DNA of 63,959 nucleotides, the filler included, from Reclinomonas americana ATCC 50394 (Eukaryota), in NCBI GenBank assembly GCA_048213135.1. It is 9 parts of 2 records of this genome, joined end to end, with 100 filler letters (N's around TTAATTAATTAA, not from the genome) between each part and the next. Parts side by side here need not be neighbours in the genome. Positions count along the whole stretch, not along the records: positions 24,982 to 51,293 come from PS015360.1; 8 more parts are not named here. The stretch is one strand, 5' to 3'. This document shows positions 845 to 61,323 of this stretch, in pieces (within the stretch, counting starts at the first letter, position 1; each line of letters opens with the position of its first letter). The notes under the pieces were generated by a model. It did not search any database. It had not been told where the DNA came from and worked only from the letters and a program-made list of their open reading frames with translations. The translations under genes and the position numbers were made by a program.

Positions 845-1519
845 TCCCATCTTTCTAACGTCTCTCGTGGCATCAGATTATGATCCCGGTGCCGACATAC
901 CCGCTGTACACGGCCACGGTGGTGCTCTTTGGAGGACACCAGTCGTTCTACCAGCTGAATGAGGACAAGGACTGGGGCTTGGAGGTCGACGAGCTTGAGG
1001 CCCGTTTCCGCGAGGCGCGTGCCATTGGCAAGCGTGTGCGTGCGCTCACCGTCATCAACCCGGGCAACCCCGCCGGCAACGTCCTGGACGAGGACAACCA
1101 GCGCGATGTTGCGAACCGCCCCTATCTCCTCCCTCTCTCTTTTCGGCAGTCGCTCACCGACACATATGCACAGATTATCCGCTGGTGCGCACGCAACGGT
1201 GTGGCGCTGCTGGCCGACGAGGTGTACCAAGACAACGTGCACCGCGACGACAAGAGGTTTGTCAGCTTCAAGAAGGTGTGGAGCGATCTGGCCGGCGAGA
1301 GCGACGAGATCAAGAACATGCAGCTGTTCTCGTTCCACTCGACCTCCAAGGGCTTCACCGGCGAGTGCGGCAAGCGCGGTGGCTACGTGGAGATGATCAA
1401 CATTGAGGACGCCGTCAAGGACCAAATGTACAAGCACGCCTCGCTGAACCTGTGCCCCAACCTCGGCGGTCAGGTGAGGCAGGCACAGAGGACTGAGGGA
1501 ATGGGAGAGAAGAGGGAGA

Positions 1520-1559
<40 letters not shown>

Positions 1560-2028
1560 AGAGAGTAATGCTCACTGTCCCTTCTTCCCCCTACAGGTGG
1601 CCGTGGAGTGCATGGTCAACCCGCCAAGCCCCGGCTCCCCCTCCTACGATCTGTACATTCAGGAGCGCGACGCCATCAATGCGTCGCTGAAGCGCAAGGC
1701 ACAGATGCTGTCGGACGCCTTCAACCACCAGATGGAGGGCGTGACGTGCAACTTCCCCTCGGGCGCACTCTACGCCTTCCCGCAAATCCGGCTGCCGGCC
1801 AAGGCCGTGGCAGAGGCCAAGAAGCAGGGCAAGGCGCCGGACGCGCTGTATTGCTTCGAGTTGCTGGAGAACACGGGCATTTGCGTGGTGCCGGGCTCCG
1901 GCTGCCAGCAAAAGGCCGGCACCTATCACTTCCGCACAACCTTGCTGCCGCAAGAGAAGGACATTCCGGAGGTGGTGGAGCGCATGACGAGATTCCACGC
2001 CGATTTCATGGCTCGCTACGCCGACTAG
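329..2028 (+). CDS. GPT: Alanine aminotransferase (PLP-dependent), 5' end outside window or lost in repeats; at least 3 introns
   Basis: Motifs AEYAVRG, YCNIGNPQ, GAYSDSRG, YPLY, VINPGNP, LADEVYQDN, SFHSTSKGFTGECGKRGG, VVPGSG, YHFRTTLLP; introns at 791-877, 1108-1173, 1474-1597; stop TAG 2026-2028. Confidence 0.95.
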
Positions 2029-2069
2029 GCACTCGCTTGAATCGCTTGCCCTCTCTCTTTCATTCTCTC

Positions 2070-2169
2070 NNNNNNNNNNNNNNNNNNNNNNNNNNNNNNN
2101 NNNNNNNNNNNNNTTAATTAATTAANNNNNNNNNNNNNNNNNNNNNNNNNNNNNNNNNNNNNNNNNNNN
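2070..2169. other. Artificial contig-joining spacer N44-TTAATTAATTAA-N44 (also at ~3637, 7014, 19871, 24882, 51294, 53055, 61035)
   Basis: Identical 100-nt spacer with stop codons in all six frames. Confidence 0.97.
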
Positions 2170-2259
2170 ACGTACGGACGTACGGTCGTACGTAGGTACG
2201 GTACGTACGGTACGTACGTACGGTACGTACGTACGTCGTCGTCGTCGTCTCTCGTCGTC

Positions 2260-2374
<115 letters not shown>

Positions 2375-2757
2375 GTGCCTCTCATCTGCAATCTCTCTCT
2401 CTCTGCCTCTTTCCACACATGAGCATTCACCTGATTCAAAGTCGACTCTGTGATGCGCGTCGACGGAGCAGCCGAGGAGGAAGCCATGGTGCGTGAAAAC
2501 AGTCGCGACACTGCTTACACACAAAAACACAAGACGAATCAGTGATGCACACGTGTGCGTGCACGCGTGTCTCAACAATGAGAGAGACAGACAAAGAGAG
2601 AGAGAGAGACGCACCACTGCCAGCACCAACAACAAGAGAACGCATTCACTCAAGAGTGTGAGTGATTGCAAAGTCATTGATCCGATGAATGATCAACAGA
2701 CACACAAAGGAGAGAACGCGCGCGCACACACACATACTCTCTCTCACGCACAAACAG

Positions 2758-3306
2758 ATGACATCAGCAGCTGAACAGGTAAGAGCGTGCGCGTGTGTGT
2801 CATGTCGCACACATCACTCTCACACACTCTCTCTCACTCACACTCTCTCTCATTCACTCACTCACTAACACACTCACACACTCACACACACGCACACAAT
2901 CACACACAATCACACACAATCACACACACTGTCACACACTCTCTCTTGTCTCTCTCCCCCTCTCTCTTCTCTCTCTCCCCCCTCTCTCTCTTCTCTCTCT
3001 CACACACACTCACACACTCTCTCACACACAACACTCATACACACACACTCACACACACTCACACACTCACACTCACACAATCGCTCACTCTTCTCTCTCT
3101 CTCTGTCTCTCTCTCTCTCTCTCCCTCTCTCTCTTTCTCCCTTGTGAGCAGGTGCATGGTGATGTGGAGGATGATGTGTATGAGGAGTATGAGGAAGAGA
3201 GTGATCCTCTGGCACACGTGCATGCATTCTTCACGGATACGTACTTTAAGAGGTCGGCGGATCTGCTGTCGGCGATTGAGACGCTGCGCACGTCGTTCAA
3301 GACGAG
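2758..3306 (+). CDS. First exons of an unidentified gene, possibly the eIF2B-beta N-terminus
   Basis: ATG exon MTSAAEQ|GTAAG then exon VHGDVEDDVYEE...LLSAIETLRTSFKTR|GTGAGT; link to the next contig is only inferred. Confidence 0.35.
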
Positions 3307-3737
3307 GTGAGTGGAGGGAGGAGAGAGAGAAGAGAGGGAGAGAGAGAGAGAGAGAAGAGAGTGAGTGCATTGTGAGATGTGCATACTGGCTGCTTTCTGA
3401 GTCAGTTGTCTTGCTGTTCTCCCTATTCTTCTTCTCCTCTTGTCTCTGCTCTCATGTTGTCACTGTGCTTGTGCCTTGTGCGTCTGTGCGTGAGGCTCGT
3501 GTTGGGGTCACGCAGTCACAGACAACACCGTCCGTCGCCTTTCAAGTCCTCCGTATTATTATCTGTCTTCTCCTTCTCTTCTCCTTCTTCTGCTTCTCCT
3601 CCTCTCTCCTCTTCTCTCTCTCTCTTTCTCTCTCTCNNNNNNNNNNNNNNNNNNNNNNNNNNNNNNNNNNNNNNNNNNNNTTAATTAATTAANNNNNNNN
3701 NNNNNNNNNNNNNNNNNNNNNNNNNNNNNNNNNNNNG

Positions 3738-7013: not shown

Positions 7014-7113
7014 NNNNNNNNNNNNNNNNNNNNNNNNNNNNNNNNNNNNNNNNNNNNTTAATTAATTAANNNNNNNNNNNNNNNNNNNNNNNNNNNNNNN
7101 NNNNNNNNNNNNN

Positions 7114-9936: not shown

Positions 9937-12012
9937 ATGCGCGTTGTGGCCGCCACTGTGTTGCTGCTGGTGCTGCTGCTCGCGGCATTAGTCTGCGCAG
10001 ATGACACTGTCAACTTGCCCGGGTTCCACTTTGTTCCACTTCCGCACGGGTGGATGAATGATCCCAAGTGCGTCGGTCATGCTCTGCTTTCCCGCGCGCT
10101 CTCTCTTCACAGCCAGCCCGCATATTAACGCTCTCTCTCTCTTTCTTGCTCAGCGGGCCATTCTACGATCCGTCGACGCAGTTGTATCATCTCATGTACC
10201 AGTACTTGACGCCACGCACGTGGGGCCATGCTGTCTCTGTCGACTTGCTGCACTGGAAGCAGCTGCCGATTGCGCTCGTCAACGACGAGTGGTACGACGA
10301 AGGCGGCGTGTTCTCCGGCAGCGCCACTCTCCTCGACGATGGCACTCCCGTGCTCAGCTACTCGGTCTCCACCAATGACATGCAGGTTTGTATTGTTCCG
10401 ACCGATTATGTGGGCGACAAGACAGCTGCTCATGTCGCACAAAAAAACAACAACACAGTGTCTGGCGGCGCCGACCAATCGTTCCGATCCGTACCTGGTG
10501 TGGTGGACGAAGAACGACGAGAATCCGGTGATCTCGACCAAGACCGGGGCGCCGCCGGGTCGCGATGATACCACCGCGTGGAAGAGTGCCGACGGCAAGA
10601 CGTGGCGCATGGCGTATGGCTATCAGCCGGATGCCTCCTCCGGCGCCGCCATTGTGTTCACCTCCACCGATTTTCAGACGTGGACCAAGGCCGGGGATTT
10701 GCACGTGTCGCACACCACCGGCATGTGGGAGTGCCCAGGTGAGAAACGCCCAAAAGACACGCGCTTCTCCTCTTCATTCATTGCTCTTTCCTCGCGTGTT
10801 GGTGAATGAGCAGCGAGAGAGTTGGAGTTTGCGCGAATAGAGTGGTGATTGAGCTCACTCACGTTCACAGACTTCTTCCCCATCCCATACGCCTCTTCCA
10901 ATTCGACGGCGCGGGTGACGCACCTGCTGAAGGCCTCGACCATGGGCAAGGACTACTGGGTCTCCGGCACCTACGACGACTCGCGCATCGCCTTTACGCC
11001 GCACGATACCGCCACCGACATGGGCACCCGCACGCAGCTGTACGACGCCGGCGCCTTTTACGCCAGCAAGACGTTCCGCGATCCGAGCACGGATCCGCCG
11101 AGCCAGGTGCTGTGGGGTTGGGTGCCGGAGGAGCGCAGCGTGGACGCCAATGGCTCCCCGTACGGCTGGGCCTCGGTCATGTCGCTGCCGCGCCTGGTGG
11201 TGCTCGACGACGACGGCGTGCGCATCCGCACTCCGCCACACCCGCGCCTCTCCACGCTGCGCGTGCAGTCGTCGTACTACCGAATCTCGAACTTGCTGGT
11301 GCCTCGTAGCACCGTCAAGTGGGTGCCGGTGCACGGCGACCAACTGGAGCTGCGCCTGGAGATCGCCCTCACCAGCGGCACCGCCATTGAGTGCGGCATG
11401 CTGGTGCGTGCATCGTCCGACGGGCGGGAACAGACGCTGGTCGGCGTCTCCATGGTCGACACGTCGTACATGAACGCCACCGACCTGCCGGGCCTCGACT
11501 ACAACGTCACGCCCGTGTCGTACACCGACCCGCGTCTGTGCCAGCAGGCCTGCCAGGCCGACTCGCGCTGCGCAGCGTGGACCTACGTGCTGCCAGTGCC
11601 CGGCCAGGAGCGGCGCTGCTGCCTGAAGAGCGCCGTGCCGGCCGAGGTGTCGGAGAGCTTTTGCGTCTCCGGCATCAAGAATGGCGGCGTGGAGATGAGC
11701 GTCTTCGGCGACACCACCAAGTCGTCGCTGAACAGCAGCGACGGACATGCATCGTCCGTCGTTCGCTCCCCCCTGCCGCCTCGCACTGGCCTCGGCAGCA
11801 CCGTGTCACTGCATGTGTTTGTCGATCACAGCGTGGTGGAGACGTTCATCAATGAGGGACAGGCGGCCGTCACCCGTCGCGTGTATCCCACTCTGGCCGC
11901 GTCCACCGGCGTGGCACTTTACGCGGGCGCACAGTCCGACTGCCGCGTTGTCAACTTTGAGTCGTGGGCCGTGGCCAGCGCGCCTGTCACGGTCATGGAG
12001 GGGTTCGAGTGA
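9937..12012 (+). CDS. Secreted glycoside hydrolase family 32 (beta-fructofuranosidase/fructanase) with a PAN/Apple domain insertion
   Basis: Signal peptide [70 protein letters not shown]; 3 introns. Confidence 0.93.
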
Positions 12013-19870: not shown

Positions 19871-20586
19871 NNNNNNNNNNNNNNNNNNNNNNNNNNNNNN
19901 NNNNNNNNNNNNNNTTAATTAATTAANNNNNNNNNNNNNNNNNNNNNNNNNNNNNNNNNNNNNNNNNNNNTCCTCCTCCTCCTACATTGCCATTTCTCCT
20001 CCCCGACTCCGCAGTCGGCGCCACCGACGACAACACCGACGATACCTCCTGCATATCCGCTGCGCGTGCGACACACTCGTCACACCACACTCACTGATTC
20101 ACTCGCTGTCTTACACACATGCATTGCACCGACCTCGCGTGGCATCAAAGTCTGCGCGTTTCGACGCCTCCTCTTCCTCCTCGTCTTGCAGCGCCCATTC
20201 CTCTTGCATGGCGCGTTTGGCGCGACCGCCAGACACCTGCCCAGTGTCGCTCATTTGGCCAGTGGGAGGAATGATGGCACACAGTGTGCGTCGCTGTTGC
20301 GCGACAGACACCCATGGTGGTGGTGATAGTGTGCCTCGGGCGAGCAGGTGCCGAGGCAATCGCCACAGCATTCGCTGAGTGAGTGAGAGAGTGAGGATCA
20401 AGGAGAGGACACGTTAGTCGACGTTCTGCCGCGCAATGAAGGCACTTGTGCGCCCGCTAGAGACTATGCAGTAACAGTGCACAGTGAGCAGCGTCAGCGT
20501 TTTTAGCCGCAAGGCAACGAGCGAGACGGAAGAGAGAGAATGTCCCGAACGTCGACCTGCAACATCCTTCTATTCGTTGACAAAAG

Positions 20587-24881: not shown

Positions 24882-24981
24882 NNNNNNNNNNNNNNNNNNN
24901 NNNNNNNNNNNNNNNNNNNNNNNNNTTAATTAATTAANNNNNNNNNNNNNNNNNNNNNNNNNNNNNNNNNNNNNNNNNNNN

Positions 24982-26907
24982 GAGGCGTTGCTGTGTGGTG
25001 GCCTCGGATTGCGCGGCCTCGCGGAGGGCTTCGCTGGCCACGCGCTCCAGCATGGCGCGGAGAAGGTGCTGCTCCAGGGCTGTGTCGGCTGCGCACTCGG
25101 CCGCCACGGCGTGTGCGGCGTCGTCGACGTAGGCGTCGAGTACCTCTTCGGTGGTTTCGAGAGCGCGGCGGCCGCGGACGTGCTCGTCGGCGATCTCGGC
25201 CACGCATTCGGTCACGACGCGGCGACACTCGTTGCGTACGTGCGTGGCCACCACGTGCTCGCACGTCTCCGCCAAAATGAGTGCGCCCTGCATCGACACG
25301 TCGTCGTGTCGCAGTGTCACCGTGTGCGCGACTGCTTGCCGCTTCGCCGCCATGTGCGAGCGCACAATGTCTGACAGGCACTCGCGAACGACCGCCGCCG
25401 TCTGCTGCCGCACCACCTCTCCCACAATGATGTCGGCCGTGGGTCGAACGAGTGCCAGCACTGCCTCGTCGTTGGCGGTGCTCGGTAGCGCCTGCGAACG
25501 TGGATCGGCCAGCACCGACGCCAGCACGTCGGGCAGGAACGACTTGCGAATCAAGTGCGTAATCACCATGTCGGCCACCGCGTTCGCATTCTTGTCGAGG
25601 TATCGCAGCTGGCGACGCTTCAGCGCCGACTTGCGTCCCAGGTGACCACGGTAGGTCTTCTGAATGCGAGTGGCGGCCTGATTCCGCCGCGACATTTCTA
25701 ACACGAGGGAAAACAAAAATGAGCACGAGGAAACAGTCCGGCAAGCGCATGCACGAATGCACCATCAAACTTGAGATATCTCTTCTGGTCGGCCTTGGCG
25801 ATTTGCGGCCGCAACGAGGCCGCCTCGCGCTTGGCCTCCTCCCGTTTCCTCTTGCTCGGCGACGACGAGCGATGTGTGCTGCGTCGCCGATCCCGATGCC
25901 GATCTCTGTCGCGATCTCGATCTCGATCCCTGTCCCTATCCCTTTCACGTTCCCGATCGCGGTGCTCCCGATGCCCGCCATGATGTCGTCGGTGCGAGTC
26001 CCTCTCTCGATGCTCACGATGCCGCCGGTGATTCGAGTGTCGCCGATGTCGCCGATCCTCCGCGTCCCGCTGCCGTCTCCGATGCTGCCGATCATCCGCT
26101 CTCCTTCGCCGCTGCTCTGCGTCCTCACAATCGGAGCACGAGCAGGATCCATCATCGTCGCCATCAGACGACGACGAGTCATCCTCCGAGTGCGACAGTG
26201 GCGGAGGCGGCGTGGTCGACGACGACGACGAATCCGACAACGACACCTCATCACTGCGCCTTCTCCTCTCCTTGCGCGCCATTGGCTTCATCGGCGGAAG
26301 CACCTCCCCTCGATTACGATAGCGATTGCGATGCCGTTGCGCGCGGACCTCACTGCAACGCACAGGTCGTGAGCATGTGGTGAGCACGCGCGCGAGACAA
26401 GACGAGCGGAACTTGACAGTCTGTGTCTCACTCGGCGCCGACAGCGCTCCTCGAGACAGCGCCGACAATGGAGTGGCCACCATACTCGGTGTCGCACCAG
26501 AGCTCTCTGGTCGTGATGGTCGCAGCGACGAGGAAGCCACCTTTCCCACACACACACACACAGTCAGAGCGATGGAAGAGAGAGTGTGTGTCTCTCGAGA
26601 AACAGACAGACCGAGGCAGCTTGATACGCAGAGACTTGATGCGCGCCTGAAGGCGTCACATAGTAGTACTGTGATGGATGAACCGCATTCGCCGCGGCCA
26701 CAGTCACCGGGTATCTGATCACCTATGTGTGAGAAGAGGAAGAGGAAACAGGTGACTAGAGGCACTCAACAGTCCATAGTAAGGCGGTGCACCCGCGGCC
26801 GCCATGTGGTGCTGAGGAGGAGCATATGGATGTGGTAATGGATGATGGTGGAGAAGAGGGGGAACAGCCGCAGCCGCCGCGGAGTACGGATACATCCCTC
26901 CCTCCAC
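24982..26907 (-). CDS. IQ-motif protein with an R/D/H-rich low-complexity region; 3' truncated
   Basis: AATRIQKTYRGHLGRK IQ motif; RD/RE dipeptide tract; several introns. Confidence 0.65.
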
Positions 26908-27103
26908 ACAACCGATTTTTCGACACCGAGTCCGTTAACGTCGCAGTGTCCTCTTCGAATTGTGGCACATATTAAAACAACCGCAGACAGAGGGGAATGG
27001 GTTGTGGAGTAACACGGGGGTAATGTGTAATCGTGTGCACGGGCGTCGCAGTTGTGTTGTTGCGAGGAGTGTCCCGCGACGTTCTCTTGTCAACTCTCAC
27101 AGC

Positions 27104-30100
27104 ATGCACGGTGTGCGCAAGTCAGATGGAGCAGCGCGTCAAGCTGCGGCTCGCGCCAAGATTGAGAACTATTGCACCTTGTCAGCGCGCAGTCTTGAGC
27201 TTGTGCGTGACATGCTCTTCTCTCTCTCTCTTTCACACACTCACTCACTCACTCTTGTCTGTTTGCGTGCGTGTGTGTGTAGCGCAAGGCCAATGCGCTG
27301 ACTGCGGAGAGCTTGGAGGTGACTGCGCAAACGCTGCTCATCAATCCGGATTATTACACATTGTGGAACTTTAGGCGCGATGTGCTCACGCACATGATTG
27401 ACAGCATGTTGCGTCTCTCTGCTCCTCTCTCAGTGTGTCTCTCTCTCGTGTGCATGGTTGCTCATATGTGGTGCATAAGGACTGATGAGAAGGAGGTTGT
27501 GGCGCTCAAGCAGCGCGAGTTGAGCTTCAACAAGGACGCGCTCAAGATCAATCCAAAGATCTACGCCATCTGGAATCACCGCAAGTGGGTGCGTTGCTCC
27601 ACCCTTTCCGCACAAGTCTCTCTCACACACATGCACGAATGAGGAGACGAGACAAGGCGGAGGAGAGCGAACACGTGGGATGTATTTCTGTAGCTGACAC
27701 ACGTTGCTTGTGTGGATCAGGTGGTGGAGAAGTTCCCGGCGTGTTGGGAACACGAGCTGTTCTTGTGCGAGCAGCTGCTGTCGCTGGATGAGCGGAATTG
27801 TTGAGTGTTTGTGGGCATCGACTTGTCTGGATGGAAGATGGATTCGTTGTTGACTGTGTACGTCGCGCCTGTCGCAGTCCACTGCTGGAACTATCGGCGA
27901 TATGTGTTGTCGCTGGCGGGAGTGCCGGCTGAGAAGGAGATCTTGTTTTCCAGGAAGAAGATTGACAAGGTGGGTGTGGGTGTTCAATCGTGGCTCTGTC
28001 TGTCGTTCAGCAGTTGTGCGAGACGCATGTTTAGGCCTACTAGTTTACTGGTAGAACCCTACGTTCCGAACGTAGTGGACCGCGTTCGATTCGCGGGTGG
28101 GCCTTTCCTTTTTGTTGAGCGTGCTCACTTTTTTTCTAATTGCTGGCTCGTCTCTTTGAAGTCTTCTGGTTGGTGTGCACGCGTTGTTTTCGTGTTGTGG
28201 TTAGAAGTGTATACGATAGTAGTAGAGTTCTTCTCTTCTGCCTCTCCTTCTTCGTGCGCCCCGCCCTTGATCTCCAGCAGAGGCTGTCGTGTCCTGTCAC
28301 CCCCCACCCCATTTGTACTATTTTTGACTTTTCATCATATCGACTCTCGATTCATCGCCTCCGTTGCCTTGCGTTCAACCCTACAGCATTCGCATACATC
28401 CTACCGTATGTCTTCTGCATGTTGGGTTCAGAGGTCGACGTATGCTTGCACGCTGGGTTTTCTGCCTGCATTGCATTTCTGAAAGATTTATTCCCATTCT
28501 CTCCCATTTCAAGAGTGCTCTTGTCGCCATACCATAGTGATAAGCAACACATGGCCTGCTAGTTTACTGGTAGAATCCTACGCTACGAACGTAGTGGACC
28601 GCGTTCGATTCGCGGGTGGGCCTTTCCTTTTTGTCGATTTGTCGTAACTTTTTCGTTGCATGTCTCCTTTTTTTCCGCGCACACATTCTTTCGTTCCGCA
28701 ACTGGATCATATGTTGCTGCAGGGGTGCTGAATGCTTCATATCTCTGTCTCCGCCTGCCTGTTCATCTCCGTTGACCTCTGCAGAAGTTGTCTTGTCCTG
28801 TAACCCTGCTCGGACTATTTTGATATCCTTCTTGTCGACACTTGATTTGTGGTTTCCTTTGCCTTTCGCTGGACCCGATGTTGACTGCGTGTTGGGTTCA
28901 GAGGTCATATGCTCGCGTTCTGGCTATCGTGTGTTGCATTTCCTGTCATTGCATATTTCCACACTTTGCGTCTCGCTGTCAAGAATGCTTTTGTTGCCTA
29001 CCATATTGATGTACGGAAGCAACACATGGCCTGCTAGTTTACTGGTAGAATCCTACGTTCGGGACGTAGGGAACCGCGTTCGATTCGCGGGTGGGCCTTT
29101 CTTCTTTTTTCTTTTGTGCCTCTAATGTTACTTTGTGTCGTTTACCTTTTGCTCACCACTGATCTGTACTCGCCTGTTGCATGCTGCATGCAGCATCTCT
29201 GTTCCTACTCCACCCTTCGCTGTCTCTTCCGTTGCATGCTGTCGCTTCTTGTCGTATTGTCGTGTCCTTGCACCTCCCAACCCTACGTTGTCCTATTTTT
29301 GACCATTTCAACACGACACGCACACTCGTTCCTCGGTCGCTCTCTTGTATCCACCCCTGGTGTCCGTGTTGTATAGACGCGCGTAGCAGCGCGCATTAGA
29401 GTACTTGCTGAAGCGACGCAATGACACAGCGTGTATGACGTCTGCATTGCAGTCGGTGCAGCACATTCCTTTCCGTTCTCTCTCTTTGCCTCGCTGTCTC
29501 AACCACCCCCTCGTCACTTGTTGGAAGGGTTAGCAGAAGCACATGACATGGCCTACTAGTTTACTGGTAGAACCCTACGCTTCGAACGTAGTGGACCGCG
29601 TTCGATTCGCGGGTGGGCCTTTCCTTTTTGTTGATTTGTGATCATTTTTTTCGTCGACAGTCTTCTTTTTGCCGCGCACACATTCTTTCGTTCCGCAACT
29701 GGTTCGTGTTGCTGCATGAGTGCTGAATGCTTCGCCTCTCTCCCTGTATCTCTCTGTGCCTGCGTGCCCATCTCCGTTTACCTGTGCAGAGTGCTCGTAC
29801 TATTTGATATCCTTCATGTCGACTCTTGATTCGTGGTTTTCTTTGCCTGTCGTTGGGCCCTGTGTTTACGATCTGTCTTGCATCATCTGCGTGTTGGGAT
29901 CAGAGGCCGCATGCTCGCATTCTGGCTATCGTGTGTTGCCTTTCCTGCCGATGCATTTTCCTCTCAGGCATCTCTCTGTCAAGAATGCTCTTGCTGCCTT
30001 ACCTTAGTGATTCACGGAAGCAACACATGGCCTGCTAGTTTACTGGTAGAATCCTACGTTAGGGACGTAGGGAACCGCGTTCGATTCGCGGGTGGGCCTT

Positions 30101-32522
30101 TCTTCTTTTTTCCTTTTGTGCCGATCTATTTTGCCAGCTCATCGCTGATCTGCACGCACTTGCTGCTTGCTGCATGCAGCATATCCTTTCCTACTCCACC
30201 CTGCCCTCTCCCTGCCGTTCTCATTCCACCCTGCCCTCTCCCTGCCGTTGCATGCTGTCGCTTCTTGTCGTATTGTCGTGTCCTTGCACCTCCCAACCCT
30301 ACGATGTCCTATTTTTGACCATTTTCAACACGTCTCGCACACTCGTTCCTCGCTCGCCATCTTCGTATCAACCCTTGGCATCTCTGTTGTATATACGCGC
30401 GTAGCAGCGCGCATTAGAGTACTTGCTGAAACGCAGCGATGGCGCAGCGTGCATGACGTCTGCCTTGCATCCGGTGCACGTGCAATTCCTTACCTTTCTC
30501 TCCCTCGGTCTCGCTATCTCAACCACCCCCTCGTCACTTGTTGGAAGAGTTAGCAGAAGCACATGACATGGCCTGCTAGTTTACTGGTAGAATCCTACGT
30601 TCGGGACGTAGGGAACCGCGTTCGATTCGCGGGCGGGCCCTTGAACGCTTCCTTTTTTTGTGTTTCTTTTTTTATTGACTCATGTGTGCTGTCTCCTCCC
30701 CGCAGAACTTCTCCAACTACTCGGCGTGGCACCACCGCAGCAATCTGCTGACGCAAATCATGGCCAGCAAGTCGACAGAGGAAAAGCGCCGCATGATCGG
30801 AGACGAGTTCGAGCTGGTGTCGCAGGCGTTTTTCACTGAGCCGGCCGATCAGAGTGCCTGGCTGTATCACCGCTGGCTTCTCGGCAAGGGTGCGTTCCAC
30901 CGAGTGCTCTGTTGCTCTTGCCGCCCTCTGAGAATTCCTTCGCCCCGCCCTCATTTTGCAGTGCCCTCGGAGCTGTTTGTGGAGAACGTGGCGCCGTCTA
31001 CGCTGGCAGGTGCACGGCAAGTGCTGTTGGCGTTCTCGACATTGGTACAGGTGCGGCTGTGCCCGGGAACTTGAACACTCCTTTGAGATGCTGAATCCCA
31101 CTGTAGGGAGTGTCGCCATCGACCGTGCTGCTGACGGCAGGCGGACACACTGTGGCAGTGACATGGACGCCCGTGTACGAGTCCACTCAGGCCGAGATCG
31201 ACCGCAGTCCGTTCGCCAGCGTGTGGCTCGGAGATGTGAGCGAAGAGGTGCCGTTGGGCGAGAGCGGTGAACTGGCAGTGCATGGAGACGGTATCGTTTC
31301 TGTGGATGGTGTGGCGCTGTCGCTGGGCGGCGTGTGCCGGTGGACTGCGGAGGGCATGGTGCTCTTGCCGCTTCTCAGCAAGGACGTTGTGGATCGGGCC
31401 GAGGAGGATCAAGGTGCTGCTGATGTCCCTTGATGATGGTGGTGGTGGTGGAGCTTCACAATTGTGTCTCATCACGAATGACATGTGTGTGTGTGCAGAG
31501 TTGCGCGCCTTGTCAGTGCTGGAAAAGGATATCGAGCTGTGTCGCGAGCTGCTGAGCGAGGAGGATGGGCTGAAATGTTGAGTGAGATGCCTTGGTCTTT
31601 GTCCCTCATCGCATTCTTTGCGTGGCTACCCTTCTCAATGCCACTGTCCACGCAACGCAGGGGCATCCATCACGCTGGCATTCTCGCTGCGCGAGCGTGA
31701 CTTGCAGATTGTTCGTCGTGAGCGACGCGTGAACCCTGCTCTTTCCGGTTCCGTACGCCCTCCTCCTCAGCTTCGTCATCGGTGTCGGTTCTCGTTGACA
31801 ATTGTGCGTGCGTGCCACAGAGAGCTCGGAGGACTCGCTTGCTTCCTCGCTGGAGGCCATCGAGCTCCTTGGTGGCCTCGCAGCCTCCGACAGCATGCAC
31901 ACACGTTACTATGACGATATGCGGAGCGACTACTCGCTGGAGCTGCGCACTCGCCATCCGTTCCCCAAGGACGCGGCTCCTCGCTCACAGGTGCACGCCG
32001 ACGACTGGACGCTGGACCTGTGTGGCCAGTGTTTCACGCGTGTGCGCCACTTGAATAGGTGTGGCGTCGTGCGCCTGCAGTCTTGCATATTGCGCACGCG
32101 CAAGTGCTAATGATTTCTGCAGGATGGTGCACATTCGCCACCTGGACTTGTCTCGCAATGCGCTCGTCTCGCTGGAGGGCATTCAGTTTTTGGCGCTGTT
32201 GGAGACTCTGATTGCCGACGACAACCAGTTGACGAATCTCGATGTGAGACTGTCGGCGCTGAAGCACTTGCGAGTGCTCTCCGTGGCCAACAATGGTGTG
32301 TGTGTGCGCCCACTTGTCCTTGTCGTGTCTGTGTGTGCGCTTGCTTGCACTCAACCGTGGTGTGCGTGTGCGCGCCGCGCAGCCATTGCGTTGTTGCCAA
32401 CCAACGCCGTGAGCGATGTGGTCACGGAGGTGCGCGGTGGCAACAATCCGGCCACCACCGCTGCTCTGCTGCGGACTGCTTTTCCGGCAGCCACGACGGT
32501 GGTGTGGGAGGTGACGGAATGA
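27104..32522 (+). CDS. RABGGTA: Rab geranylgeranyltransferase alpha subunit (prenyltransferase repeats, Ig-like region, LRR)
   Basis: MHGVRK start; INPDYYTLWNFRR, INPKIYAIWNHRKW, DERNFHCWNYRR, NFSNYSAWHHRS, AFFTEPADQSAWLYHRWLL, LRRs LDLSRNALVSL; many short introns plus one 2.7-kb intron. Confidence 0.93.
28034..28104 (+). tRNA. tRNA with anticodon CCG (nominal Arg), array copy 1
   Basis: GGCCTAC TA GTTT ACTGGTA GAAC C CTACG TT-CCG-AA CGTAG TGGA CCGCG TTCGATT CGCGG GTGGGCC T; A and B boxes; oligo-T terminator. Confidence 0.88.
28553..28623 (+). tRNA. tRNA with anticodon ACG (nominal Arg), array copy 2
   Basis: Same cloverleaf; loop CT-ACG-AA (anticodon 28585-28587); T5 terminator. Confidence 0.88.
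29028..29098 (+). tRNA. tRNA with anticodon CGG (nominal Pro), array copy 3
   Basis: Same cloverleaf; loop TT-CGG-GA (29060-29062); variable loop GGAA; T6 terminator. Confidence 0.88.
29550..29620 (+). tRNA. tRNA with anticodon TCG (nominal Arg), array copy 4
   Basis: Same cloverleaf; loop CT-TCG-AA (29582-29584); T5 terminator. Confidence 0.88.
30029..30099 (+). tRNA. tRNA with anticodon AGG (nominal Pro), array copy 5
   Basis: Same cloverleaf; loop TT-AGG-GA (30061-30063); T6 terminator. Confidence 0.88.
30570..30640 (+). tRNA. tRNA with anticodon CGG (nominal Pro), array copy 6; discriminator C
   Basis: Same cloverleaf; loop TT-CGG-GA (30602-30604); G6-C67 pair; T7 run 13 nt downstream. 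Confidence 0.88.
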
Positions 32523-32636
32523 AACACTCGGCATGCAGAGACACACAGTCACTGTGTATATTCGTTGTGTGCGTGCGGGAGAAAAAGGACATTGCCGGTG
32601 CCGCGCGACTCGGTGATCCACGTGCTTGGAGCGGAA

Positions 32637-35600
32637 TTAGCGCACAATGGAGTTGGGAATCGCCGGCTGTGTGCAGATACCGGCCGATGTCATCGCCGGG
32701 TTGCCGCGGAAGTTGCAGATGCCACTCTCGTCGGTCCGCAGGTCCTGCGCGAAGAGTAAGCCGTCAGGAACAACAACGAAGAGGGAGAGAGAGAAAAGAC
32801 GCAACTGCCAGAACCACTGGAATCTTCTTGGAGCTGAGGACCTTGTCGGGCGCTGCCTCAAAGCCGGCAAACGACACGCGCTCGCCGATGCGCGATCCCT
32901 CTGGCGGATTGATAAAGTCGACCTTGCTGTCGTCGGCACTGGCAGCGCACAGGACCATGGCCTCGCTCTTCACGTCGCGCAGCTTGGAGGGCTTCATGTT
33001 GCACACGACAAGAATGACACGGTCCTGCGATATGCCGGGCGACAGGTGAGGGAAACGGCACGCTGGGACACGCATCAGCCATGCACAACCAACCTGCATC
33101 CTGTCAATCGGGATGTGTTGCACGAGTCCACTGACCACCTGGCGCGGCTCCGCCTCACCCACGTCGATCCTTTCCACATACAGCCTGCCGACAACAAGAA
33201 AGATGAACAATGACCGCGATATCGATCGTGCTTCTGACAGAAACACAGAGACAACGTACCGATCGGCCGTCGGGTGACGCTCCACATGCACAATGCGACC
33301 GACGCGAATGTCAAACGCCGAAATGTCTTCCAGATCCACCTTGGGTGGTGGAGGTGGAGCCTTCGTCTTTTCCTTCTTCTCCTTCTTCTCTGTCCGCTTG
33401 CCAGCGGCGGCCGGGGGTGCAGATTCCGCTGCCGCAGCCGCAGATTCAGAGGCAACAGATTCCGCGGCGGCTTCCGACTTCTGTGATGCCGGTGGCGGTG
33501 GTGGTGGTGCGCCACTGCCAGACGCTCCCCCCGAGGCGTCGGCGAATTCCAGCGGCGCCTCTCCAATGCTGCGACGGTACTCGTTGTGCGCCTCCAGCTG
33601 CTTCTCCCACTGCTTCTGCAACCTCTTCTGCGCGGCCTTGGCCACCGGCTTGCCGTCCTTGTCGACGGTTGGCAGACCCCTCTCGTCCCAGGCCGAGTAC
33701 TCCGCGTCCCTGAACATGTCCAGCGGCGACTTCTTTGCCGCCTCCAGTTTCAACGCTGTGAACGGGCGCAACGTCGGCGACAGAATGCGCCAGAGAAATC
33801 CGGCCAACAACAACAACAACGAACCCTGCGCAGCCTCACGCTCCAACCGGCGCTTCTCCTTATCCGCTTCCCGTGCAGCCTCCGCAGCGCGCTTCTCTTC
33901 CAACTCCTGCTGCAAAACCTCCGGCTTCTCAAACTTCCATGCACTCTTGCCGTCGGGGCGGTCCTCCAGACGCACACCAAGAGGAATCAAGGTGGTGTCA
34001 CGGATATCGTCAGTCATGCGCAAAATCACTTGGTAATCTGCGACGAGCGAGCAAGTGCGTGAGCGAGTGAGAGACACAAGAACAGCCATAAGTTCTCCCC
34101 CCACGCTCGTCAATCCCAACACACCTGCTTTTTGACGAGCCGCCGTGCGCACTTGCTCGCGGAAATCGGCGAGCACGTTGAGGTACGGTGCGATGCGGTC
34201 CTCCGCCTGTCAGCAAGAGACGTTGGTCAGTGCATGGCCATCGAATCAATAAACGAAGAGGCGTCTNNNNNNNNNNNNNNNNNNNNNNNNNNNNNNNNNN
34301 NNNNNNNNNNNNNNNNNNNNNNNNNNNNNNNNNNNNNNNNNNNNNNNNNNNNNNNNNNNNNNNNNNNNNNNNNNNNNNNNNNNNNNNNNNNNNNNNNNNN
34401 NNNNNNNNNNNNNNNNNNNNNNNNNNNNNNNNNNNNNNNNNNNNNNNNNNNNNNNNNNNNNNNNNNNNNNNNNNNNNNNNNNNNNNNNNNNNNNNNNNNN
34501 NNNNNNNNNNNNNNNNNNNNNNNNNNNNNNNNNNNNNNNNNNNNNNNNNNNNNNNNNNNNNNNNNNNNNNNNNNNNNNNNNNNNNNNNNNNNNNNNNNNN
34601 NNNNNNNNNNNNNNNNNNNNNNNNNNNNNNNNNNNNNNNNNNNNNNNNNNNNNNNNNNNNNNNNNNNNNNNNNNNNNNNNNNNNNNNNNNNNNNNNNNNN
34701 NNNNNNNNNNNNNNNNNNNNNNNNNNNNNNNNNNNNNNNNNNNNNNNNNNNNNNNNNNNNNNNNNNNNNNNNNNNNNNNNNNNNNNNNNNNNNNNNNNNN
34801 NNNNNNNNNNNNNNNNNNNNNNNNNNNNNNNNNNNNNNNNNNNNNNNNNNNNNNNNNNNNNNNNNNNNNNNNNNNNNNNNNNNNNNNNNNNNNNNNNNNN
34901 NNNNNNNNNNNNNNNNNNNNNNNNNNNNNNNNNNNNNNNNNNNNNNNNNNNNNNNNNNNNNNNNNNNNNNNNNNNNNNNNNNNNNNNNNNNNNNNNNNNN
35001 NNNNNNNNNNNNNNNNNNNNNNNNNNNNNNNNNNNNNNNNNNNNNNNNNNNNNNNNNNNNNNNNNNNNNNNNNNNNNNNNNNNNNNNNNNNNNNNNNNNN
35101 NNNNNNNNNNNNNNNNNNNNNNNNNNNNNNNNNNNNNNNNNNNNNNNNNNNNNNNNNNNNNNNNNNNNNNNNNNNNNNNNNNNNNNGGGAGAGCATTGGT
35201 CAGTGGCCGAACACGGTTCTTTGCTTTCTCGTCGAGCGCGACGCAACGTGGCCATGGCCGAGCACTCAATGTGCCAACCGGGGCGACCGCGTCCCCACGG
35301 CGAGTCCCACGCTGGCTCGCCAATCTTTGAGGCCTTCCACAGCGCAAAATCGGCCGCCGTCTTCTTCTCCGACACACCACCGCACAGCGAACCTGCCAGC
35401 GAAGAGGACGACAAAATGTCAGGAGAGACCACGCACGCATCAGCGATTGACAGACTGGACGGACTGACCCTCGCCCTCAGCCATCAGCTCCAGATCATTG
35501 TGGCGCTCTGGTGCGAGCTTGGGATGCTCGTGGCCGGCAGCGAGGTAGGCAGTGGTGTCAAAGTACACCGAACCAGTGGCGCTGGCGTACGCAAAGCCAT

Positions 35601-50948: not shown

Positions 50949-51393
50949 TGATAACAAAATTGCAGCATTCGAGGACGCTGCGAACGTCGGCTGCACTGAG
51001 GGGGCGAGGCGAGTGCAGTGGATGTAGGTATTGGGGGTATCGCCCGCTACGAGATGATACCATTTGTGAAGAGTCTGCAGAGTGCGAGGACGTCGCGTTG
51101 GATGTCTTTCATTGTCGACTGTGGCGTACTACGACGGTCCGAGCATCTTCTCTGGTCGCACCCATTCCTGTAGCACGATGGATTTTCTTTTGCAATGAGG
51201 ATTGGAGACGTCGATCGAGACATGGATGGAAACGAAACATCGAATTGCTCCGCCGTCAGCAGCGACAGTGCGAGACAGGCCTCTTTAAGCGACNNNNNNN
51301 NNNNNNNNNNNNNNNNNNNNNNNNNNNNNNNNNNNNNTTAATTAATTAANNNNNNNNNNNNNNNNNNNNNNNNNNNNNNNNNNNNNNNNNNNN

Positions 51394-53054: not shown

Positions 53055-53788
53055 NNNNNNNNNNNNNNNNNNNNNNNNNNNNNNNNNNNNNNNNNNNNTT
53101 AATTAATTAANNNNNNNNNNNNNNNNNNNNNNNNNNNNNNNNNNNNNNNNNNNNCACACACATGCACAGACAGAGGAAGATAGAAGAGAGTCTGTTTGTG
53201 AGTGCGCGCGTTGTCAGACCTCGGTCCACAGTTCCACCGGCAACAGTGACAACAGTGTGCGGTGTTGCACAGCTCCACCTCCACTTCGACTTGCACTTCC
53301 TTCTCCACCACTACCACCACCAGCAGCGCCATCATCACATCCATCACCACCGCCATCAGCAAGAGCAAAGGGAGCGACCGAAGTCGAGATGGTGGTGGTG
53401 GTCGACAAGGAATCCATTTTCCCTCCCTTTTCCATGCGTATTACGCCGCCAGTGATCACCCGCTGACACTCAGCCTGTGCACACAATGGTACACGATGTC
53501 AAAAGAGCACGCGCCAATAACACACTCTCGCCATAAAGAGAAGCAACCTCTCGGATTCTCCGTGACTGAGTGAGCAAACAACACGCGCACGCGGACACAC
53601 ACACACAGACACACACAGACACAGAGAAGAACTCAGTGCGTCCGCACACACACTCGCACTTGCACTCTCTCTCTCTCTCTCTCTCACGCACAAGCGCAAG
53701 TCTCCCGCTTTCTCACCGAAAACGCGTTGTGTTTGTGTTGACAATGATGCACACCGCGAGCACACTGCACACTCTTCGTATCGCACCC

Positions 53789-61034: not shown

Positions 61035-61323
61035 NNNNNNNNNNNNNNNNNNNNNNNNNNNNNNNNNNNNNNNNNNNNTTAATTAATTAANNNNNNNNNN
61101 NNNNNNNNNNNNNNNNNNNNNNNNNNNNNNNNNNAAGAGAGGGGAAAGGGGAAAAGGGGAGGAGAGAGAGAGAGAGGTGAGAAGAGCAATGAGCAGGAAG
61201 CGAGAAGGGTGAGAAGGAGAAGGAACGAGGAATCACTCGTAGCACTTGAGGTGAGGCAGGAAGAGAGGGAGTGAGAGGGAGAGGGAGGGAGGGGAGACAG
61301 AGAACACCCTGCATGCACTCACA

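Follow-up and report, generated by a model that had tools for sequence, protein, structure and literature searches.

The locus described here lies in a stretch of 63,959 nucleotides (the window) from Reclinomonas americana ATCC 50394 (assembly GCA_048213135.1), which is eukaryotic nuclear DNA with approximately 58% G+C and spliced genes. ARAGORN, run over the whole window, finds exactly six transfer RNA (tRNA) genes, all on the plus strand within 28033-30640, that follow one another in the order Arg CCG, Arg ACG, Pro CGG, Arg TCG, Pro AGG, Pro CGG, and all six are located inside one intron of a Rab geranylgeranyltransferase (RabGGTase) alpha gene that is itself on the plus strand. The original prediction, that six 71-nt cloverleafs share one body while carrying the anticodons of two isotypes, is confirmed. 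The first copy was set at 28034-28104 by homology and Infernal, the ARAGORN call being one base longer at either end. The genes, designated t1 to t6, are as follows.

28034..28104, plus strand: t1, anticodon CCG (Arg), with A6-U67, G10-C25, U32, A37, variable loop TGGA and U73
28553..28623, plus strand: t2, anticodon ACG (Arg), with G6, U25, C32, A37 and TGGA
29028..29098, plus strand: t3, anticodon CGG (Pro), with G6.U67, G10.U25, U32, G37, variable loop GGAA and U73
29550..29620, plus strand: t4, anticodon TCG (Arg), with A6-U67, G10-C25, C32, A37, TGGA and U73
30029..30099, plus strand: t5, anticodon AGG (Pro), differing from t3 at wobble position 34 only
30570..30640, plus strand: t6, anticodon CGG (Pro), the sole copy with G6-C67 and C73

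The six genes align over 71 columns without a gap, and 61 of the columns are invariant. The variable ones (6, 24, 31, 33, 34, 36, 43, 45, 65 and 71 when counted along the sequence) correspond in standard numbering, with nucleotides 17 and 47 absent, to positions 6, 25, 32, 34, 35, 37, 44, 46, 67 and 73, exactly the set that had been listed from the sequence at the outset, and, as had been claimed, no copy differs from the others in the anticodon stem (CTACG/CGTAG), the D-loop or the T-arm. The reported linkage of isotype to nucleotides outside the anticodon is equally strict: A37 with variable loop TGGA occurs in all three Arg copies, and G37 with GGAA in all three Pro copies, the fixed differences between the two sets being positions 35, 37, 44 and 46. 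In total, Arg and Pro copies differ at 5–10 of 71 positions, and the acceptor stem and discriminator are shared by five of the six genes. Position 34 is the only three-state site, position 35 is C or G only, and position 36 never varies; the anticodons CCG and CGG, and likewise ACG and AGG, are one substitution apart, at position 35. C32, present in the ACG and UCG copies with U32 in the rest, represents a second anticodon-linked adjustment. As a separate observation, positions 25 and 46 (alignment columns 24 and 45) covary, with C/G in t1 and t4, U/A in t3, t5 and t6, and U/G in t2, and are paired by RNAalifold; this covariation might reflect a tertiary contact of the 10-25 pair with the variable loop.

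Under a cloverleaf with stems of 7, 4, 5 and 5 bp, 126 of 126 stem pair cells hold standard pairs, and the anticodon loop has 7 nt with an invariant U33. The stem variants (A6-U67, G6.U67 and G6-C67; G10-C25 vs G10.U25) keep pairing throughout, which bears out the original description, but this retention carries no statistical weight, being equalled by 344 of 500 shuffles. A covariation test counted zero pairs as changed on both sides, and covariation as proof of structure or selection was rejected, since six near-identical rows are uninformative. When the alignment is folded by free energy, the anticodon arm, the T arm and five of the seven acceptor pairs are recovered. The invariants expected of a tRNA are U8, A14, G18G19, A21, G53, T54, T55, C56, A58 and C61, together with the R15-Y48 Levitt pair. 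In the array U8, A14, G18G19, A21, U33 and the T-loop GTTCGATTC are invariant in all six genes, and G53, T54, T55, C56, A58 and C61 are likewise present in every copy. CCA is not encoded, and the trailers begin with TTC or TTG. A run of five to seven T residues begins 5–13 nt after each of the six genes, compared with a background of 170/2,284 other intron positions (7.4%) that have a run of at least five within 15 nt. These downstream runs, which resemble RNA polymerase III terminators, are located as follows.

28109-28113, plus strand: T-run after t1
28628-28632, plus strand: T-run after t2
29105-29110, plus strand: T-run after t3
29625-29629, plus strand: T-run after t4
30106-30111, plus strand: T-run after t5
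30653-30659, plus strand: T-run after t6

The whole window was searched, with filters off, using a covariance model built from the six tRNAs. The six genes score 99.9–102 bits, followed by matches to the antisense strands of these genes at 19.7 bits and to a simple repeat at 18.2 bits; as nothing else exceeds 19.7 bits, no further or decayed copies exist in the other ~61 kb of the window. The simple repeat, composed of ACGTACGG-like units at 2170-2240, at a contig start, is a weak false match. This result bears on the idea that the array is a tRNA-derived repeat, SINE-like (short interspersed nuclear element) or satellite, with drifting anticodons, as might be suspected from its tandem units of ~0.5 kb and T-rich, non-coding spacers. 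Such an origin is scarcely credible, given that the window contains neither an additional copy nor a degraded cloverleaf and that the anticodons, constant at 36 and restricted to C or G at 35, include no stop or odd one. Against the general tRNA model of Rfam (RF00005, gathering score 29 bits), the genes t1 to t6 score 52.9, 47.1, 44.3, 54.9, 43.1 and 45.6 bits, all above the threshold. The default Rfam run reported two of the six over the whole window and four of the six over 3.7 kb; the search filters are responsible, because default runs lose genes that pass the threshold when scored. Default filtering is thus able to miss four of six such genes, and routine annotation could be missing some of them.

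The genes are separated by five spacers of two types, X and Y.

28105..28552, plus strand: spacer S12, diverged X-type
28624..29027, plus strand: spacer S23, X-type, homologous to S45
29099..29549, plus strand: spacer S34, Y-type, homologous to S56
29621..30028, plus strand: spacer S45, X-type
30100..30569, plus strand: spacer S56, Y-type

Alignment of S23 with S45 gives 324 matches, 49 mismatches and 66 gap columns, and that of S34 with S56 gives 388 matches, 44 mismatches and 57 gap columns. Repeat analysis identifies a duplicated unit of ~1 kb, 28553-29620 resembling 29550-30640, with the layout Arg - spacer X - Pro - spacer Y. Within the spacers, a block of the X-type is 95% conserved over 40 nt (28669-28708 and 29666-29705), and a block of the Y-type, with a GC-rich palindrome, is 85% conserved over 114 nt (29347-29460 and 30365-30478); a search of the spacers, these blocks included, against Rfam at E<=1 revealed no other RNA family. 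The flanks were classified by aligning the genes together with the 70 nt that precede and the 60 nt that follow each of them; with the body markers, this gives the following groups.

5' flank: class alpha in t2, t3 and t5; class beta in t4 and t6; unique in t1
3' trailer: class a in t1, t2 and t4 (all Arg copies); class b in t3 and t5; unique in t6
Body markers at positions 6 and 25: A and C in t1 and t4; G and U in t2, t3, t5 and t6

On the basis of these classes, the basic unit is beta-Arg(A,C)-a ... alpha-Pro(G,U)-b. Two genes depart from it. In t2, which is chimeric, the 5' flank and the 5' half of the gene are Pro-type and the core and trailer are Arg-type, a combination that is explained by a putative crossover inside the gene, between positions 25 and 32. 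In t6, a body that is wholly Pro-type stands behind the beta 5' flank of an Arg position, probably as a result of conversion or of a crossover at the 5' boundary of the gene. With a chimeric t2 and a converted t6, the members of the array have recombined at least twice, and recombination between them helps to keep the bodies alike. Neither this recombination nor the intron location of the array had been noticed in the original prediction.

The reality of the differences between the copies can be considered in the light of the assembly. The window is interrupted by eight identical joints of 100 nt each (44 N, TTAATTAATTAA, 44 N), and is therefore a chain of contigs that are not necessarily genomic neighbours.

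2070-2169, 3637-3736, 7014-7113 and 19871-19970: four of the joints
24882-24981, 51294-51393, 53055-53154 and 61035-61134: the remaining four

There is also a separate gap of 920 N at 34267-35186, and the array lies on the unbroken stretch 24982-34266. Short contigs joined by N-linkers mark the assembly as a draft, in which errors of assembly or consensus in a repeated region could have produced the anticodon differences. We consider this highly improbable: every copy stands between distinct spacers that differ by 10–13% in addition to indels, the anticodon is just 33 nt from unique flank, and the anticodon differences track both the trailer class and the nucleotides at 32, 37, 44 and 46, a pattern not expected of random errors.

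The conservation of the genes can be measured against that of the spacers, which had been described as more diverged than the bodies and are so: the alignments of S23 with S45 and of S34 with S56 together hold 93 mismatches in 805 aligned sites (11.6%) and 123 gap columns in 928. Between genes in duplicate positions (t2/t4 and t3/t5), 4 of 142 sites have changed (Fisher p 7.8e-4 against the spacers), and no gap columns occur. Two of the four changes are recombination markers and the other two affect wobble position 34; were the genes to diverge as fast as the spacers, no more than two changes in 140 sites would be expected with a probability of 6e-6. The variable sites of the family are also unevenly placed, at 6 of the 11 anticodon-loop and variable-loop positions vs 4 of the 60 elsewhere (p 5e-4).

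Five of the six anticodons expected for the two codon boxes are present; the missing one, Pro UGG, was found by ARAGORN neither in the array nor elsewhere in the window. A34, and never G34, occurs in both boxes, in agreement with the eukaryotic decoding pattern (A34, not G34) that Marck and Grosjean are said to have described in 2002. Regarding aminoacylation, the excerpt of the review by Giege and Eriani (PMC9976931) used here gives A20, C35, U or G at 36 and a purine at 73 as Arg identity elements in E. coli, plants and mammals, and C35 with G36 or U36 in yeast, where position 20 is marginal and 73 is not needed; it lists 1-methylguanosine at position 37 (m1G37) as an antideterminant against arginyl-tRNA synthetase (ArgRS), attributes C73 and G1-C72 to eukaryotic tRNA-Pro, and places human Pro identity mainly in the anticodon branch. 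C35 and G36 are present in 3/3 Arg-anticodon copies, and G35, G36 and G37, as well as G1-C72, in 3/3 Pro-anticodon copies. A putative yeast-like scheme, in which identity is driven by the anticodon, fits the array.

The meaning of the codons was checked in three open reading frames (ORFs) of the window aligned with their homologues, using the columns in which at least 60% of the homologues share one residue. Of the 18 informative columns with CGN codons, 16 are conserved Arg (the others being one Pro and one Lys), and of the 22 with CCN codons, 20 are conserved Pro (the others being one Asn and one Ser). Therefore, the standard code applies, and a swap of the boxes or wholesale mis-decoding is excluded; mischarging at a low level might still occur. 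This bears directly on the proposal, made in the original prediction, that a single amino acid is attached to the whole set, which mis-decodes CGN/CCN or has a role outside translation, and on the variant of it in which charging is ambiguous and CGN or CCN is partly mistranslated. The near-identical body does leave little outside the anticodon loop by which two synthetases could separate the copies, and a Drosophila study, in the portion excerpted, suggests that shifted tRNAs keep their ancestral charging (PMC7919458). Nevertheless, the proposal gains no support from the standard use of both boxes at conserved columns; the cell would pay a high price for three genes that misread a box in such heavy use, and the changes at A37/G37 and in the variable loop are the retuning expected of a true charging switch. 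We judge it to be very unlikely.

The explanation that we favour, with a probability of roughly 60%, is a functional tandem family of tRNA genes transcribed by RNA polymerase III, which would have crossed between two amino acids via position 35, undergone retuning and been kept homogeneous by recombination. The six would be working nuclear tRNA genes of a GC-rich, intron-bearing eukaryote, descended from one tRNA gene, and would be transcribed from internal promoter boxes, each stopping at its own T-run. A change at position 35, to C or G, would have moved part of the family between the Arg CGN and Pro CCN boxes; retuning of the isotypes (A37 and UGGA in Arg, G37 and GGAA in Pro, C32 in the ACG and UCG copies) would have followed, and then diversification of the wobble position into Arg CCG, ACG and UCG and Pro CGG and AGG, with ACG and AGG presumably deaminated to inosine (I34). 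ArgRS would read C35 and G36, and prolyl-tRNA synthetase (ProRS) G35 and G36, with G37, as m1G37, helping to exclude ArgRS from the Pro copies and the shared body being neutral to both enzymes. Tandem duplication of the ~1-kb Arg-Pro unit, together with unequal crossover or gene conversion, would account for the near-identical bodies. As for the direction of the shift, the pyrimidine at 73 and the C73 of t6 lean weakly toward a Pro-like ancestor; t6 either acquired or kept C73 and the G6-C67 pair. The original prediction had spoken of alloacceptor recruitment caught in the act. Recruitment fits the C35/G35 switch, the linked changes at 37 and in the variable loop, the conserved bodies and the T-run of each gene, but "caught in the act" is unsupported, as the spacers have diverged by ~12% and the wobble position is already diversified within each isotype.

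Several points weigh against a fully functional family. The Arg copies have U20 (D-loop ACTGGTA) and not A20, and U73 and not a purine, in all three cases; C73 is found in only one of the three Pro copies, t6, with t3 and t5 carrying a U73 that is atypical for eukaryotic tRNA-Pro. To the U20 and the U discriminator of five copies (C in t6) are added, as unusual features of the body, a variable loop of 4 nt and C15 with A48, unlike the usual Levitt pair. The RF00005 scores, at 43–55 bits, are moderate, and thermodynamic folding of the alignment misses the weak D-stem. The conservation contrast weakens to 14/213 (p 0.033) if the third positional pair, t4/t6, is added, its 10 differences being due to the Pro-type body of t6, and the bodies might have stayed so similar through gene conversion alone, without purifying selection. 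Finally, Velandia-Huerto et al. (2016), in surveys of primates and flies, judge nuclear alloacceptor remoldings to be almost all confined to terminal branches and probably non-functional, as stated in the part of PMC4981973 drawn on here.

Alternatively, only one of the isotype sets, or neither, would be functional, the other copies being remolded, bound to become pseudogenes and preserved by conversion from functional neighbours while the real decoders reside elsewhere in the genome. The surveys just cited, the demonstrable recombination among the members, a U73 at odds with the rules for both Arg and eukaryotic Pro and the lack of Pro UGG in the array are all in line with this possibility. 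Conversion across isotypes, however, would erase the four linked differences, and it explains neither their retention in 3/3 copies of each type nor the kept anticodon differences. Moreover, position 34 has diversified in both isotypes into anticodons that are sensible for a eukaryote, and T-run terminators and perfect stems accompany all six genes despite ~12% spacer divergence. We regard a partly or wholly defunct array as unlikely; selection on the anticodon and the isotype-linked sites would be the simplest reading of the pattern.

A further, tentative reading is that a single scaffold supplies most or all CGN and CCN decoders of the organism and that amino acid identity, as read by a class I and a class II synthetase, resides entirely in a cassette of some four nucleotides, namely 35, 37 and a pair within the variable loop. 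We think this rather unlikely. Since the cassette is confined to the 3' two-thirds of the gene, a single crossover could switch amino acid identity in one step, and the recombinant t2 suggests an example of identity passed on in this manner. If true, the shared scaffold would represent a modular, recombination-driven tuning of tRNA gene dosage between two amino acids.

The host gene of the array is identified by its PPTA (prenyltransferase alpha) repeats, which are distributed over exons on both sides of the intron.

27283..27639, plus strand: upstream coding part of the host gene, with two PPTA repeats (Pfam PF01239, E 3.6e-18, 2 stretches; translation)
27805..27969, plus strand: host exon ending at the donor site, with a third PPTA-like repeat (HCWNYRRYV)
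27970..30705, plus strand: phase-0 intron of 2,736 nt that contains the whole array, with GT at 27970 and AG at 30704-30705
30706..31071, plus strand: host exon after the array (NFSNYSAWHHR...), with PPTA repeats 4 and 5 (PDB 3dss_A residues 175-240, E 2.6e-21)

The exon at 27805..27969, for which there is no Pfam match at E 0.01, aligns to residues 143-168 of RabGGTase alpha in PDB 4ehm_A (E 0.0036), and the downstream PPTA match spans 30679-31071 (Pfam PF01239, E 1.4e-13). In the PDB alignments, the exons flanking the intron abut at RabGGTA residues ~173/174-175. The intron extends for 64 nt before the first tRNA gene and 65 nt after the last, so that the array is nearly the entire intron.

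Approximately 2 kb from the array, on the opposite strand, is a gene for an Arc1p/AIMP1-like tRNA-binding protein (32767-34209, minus strand; Pfam tRNA_bind, E 1.1e-20), whose best homologues have PF21972 plus PF01588; its closeness to the array is probably a coincidence. Elsewhere in the window, a glycoside hydrolase family 32 (GH32) gene at 10062-12009 on the plus strand contains a PAN_4 domain (ORF residues 211-260) that falls within the match to the C-terminal GH32 domain (ORF residues 135-373), an unusual combination. Protein searches with the window proteins detected no close relative: identity was at most 25% for an ion channel and at most 47%, over a partial span, for the tRNA-binding protein, and a WD40 protein matched generic repeats only.

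Relatives of the tRNAs themselves were sought with sequence patterns. A pattern of the D-arm and anticodon stem with a free anticodon has no match in viral, metagenome and prokaryote-genome collections, and a pattern of the 3' half is likewise unmatched among the viral and prokaryote sequences. A pattern relaxed to the D-arm, a gap and the T-loop matches 17 metagenome loci, of which 7 are Gly, 4 His, 2 Ile and one each Trp, Pro and Met, with one lacking a tRNA call. These loci were rejected as relatives, as they are of mixed isotype and identical to the array tRNAs at 40–56 of 71–78 columns, ~23 of these positions being forced by the pattern; the best match, a Pro(TGG) on metagenome contig L009 (56/71), is no closer than a Gly (54/73). 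That Pro(TGG) has its first five and last six bases, including U73, in common with the window tRNAs. The contig holds 19 tRNA genes within ~2 kb (1281-3406), including a suppressor-like TTA and two calls with four-base anticodons, and looks like the tRNA arrays of phages or bacteria.

Among known systems, recruitment of tRNA genes by duplication followed by anticodon mutation is said to have been described by Saks and colleagues in 1998. Remolding of mitochondrial tRNAs is the subject of Sahyoun et al. (2015; PMC4783518). The array resembles these cases in that duplication and anticodon mutation give a tRNA that is closer to the genes of another isotype; they are bacterial or organellar, however, and usually replace a lost gene, whereas the array is nuclear, tandem and multi-copy. 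Tandem nuclear tRNA arrays under concerted evolution are known as well, according to the passages drawn upon (PMC4981973, PMC5745555; for plant arrays, PMC12652284), and like them the array consists of head-to-tail units homogenised by unequal crossover or conversion. In contrast, the arrays in those passages repeat distinct bodies for each amino acid, whereas here two isotypes share one body, and in t2 an intragenic crossover appears to have placed an Arg-type identity core behind a Pro-type 5' half.

The closest parallels are nuclear alloacceptor shifts. Rogers and Griffiths-Jones (2014) report 31 of them, with position 35 as the commonest site, and the covarying changes, as given in the portion of the study used here, are strongest at 45, 37, 72 and 73, many of the shifts crossing synthetase classes (PMC3923123). 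The fixed differences of the array include position 37, a top covarying position in that study, and flank 45, the top one. As in those shifts, one anticodon substitution changes the nominal amino acid, here between class I (Arg) and class II (Pro); unlike them, being single genes recognised by synteny between close species, the array has three copies per isotype, is diversified at the wobble position within each isotype and has units that are ~12% diverged. A single deep remolding, of Cys(GCA) to Tyr(GTA) in primates, is mentioned in the same excerpt of PMC4981973; it resembles the array in that a remolded nuclear tRNA, near-identical to its ancestor, persists over evolutionary time, and differs in that it is one gene, whose translational role is doubted by its authors, whereas the array is retuned in both isotype sets. 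The portion of PMC3923123 used here names no Arg/Pro pair, and the literature searched revealed no nuclear Arg/Pro array with a shared body; an Arg/Pro case might be named in the shift tables or supplements of PMC3923123 and PMC4981973, which lay outside that search.

Known nuclear alloacceptor shifts are thus mostly single, young and suspected to be dead, and it is an open question in tRNA evolution whether they can attain a lasting function. Provided that they are expressed and charged correctly, the six genes would constitute a clear, durable nuclear identity switch between class I and class II synthetases, as well as a natural minimal identity set of four nucleotides on a constant body, and they would offer a ready substrate pair for studies of ArgRS/ProRS discrimination and for orthogonal tRNA engineering. 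Compared with the known shifts, the array differs in degree, by its multiple copies of each isotype, the retuning of its loops, its wobble diversification and its persistence over ~12% spacer divergence, and it may represent a rare durable switch of identity in a nuclear genome.

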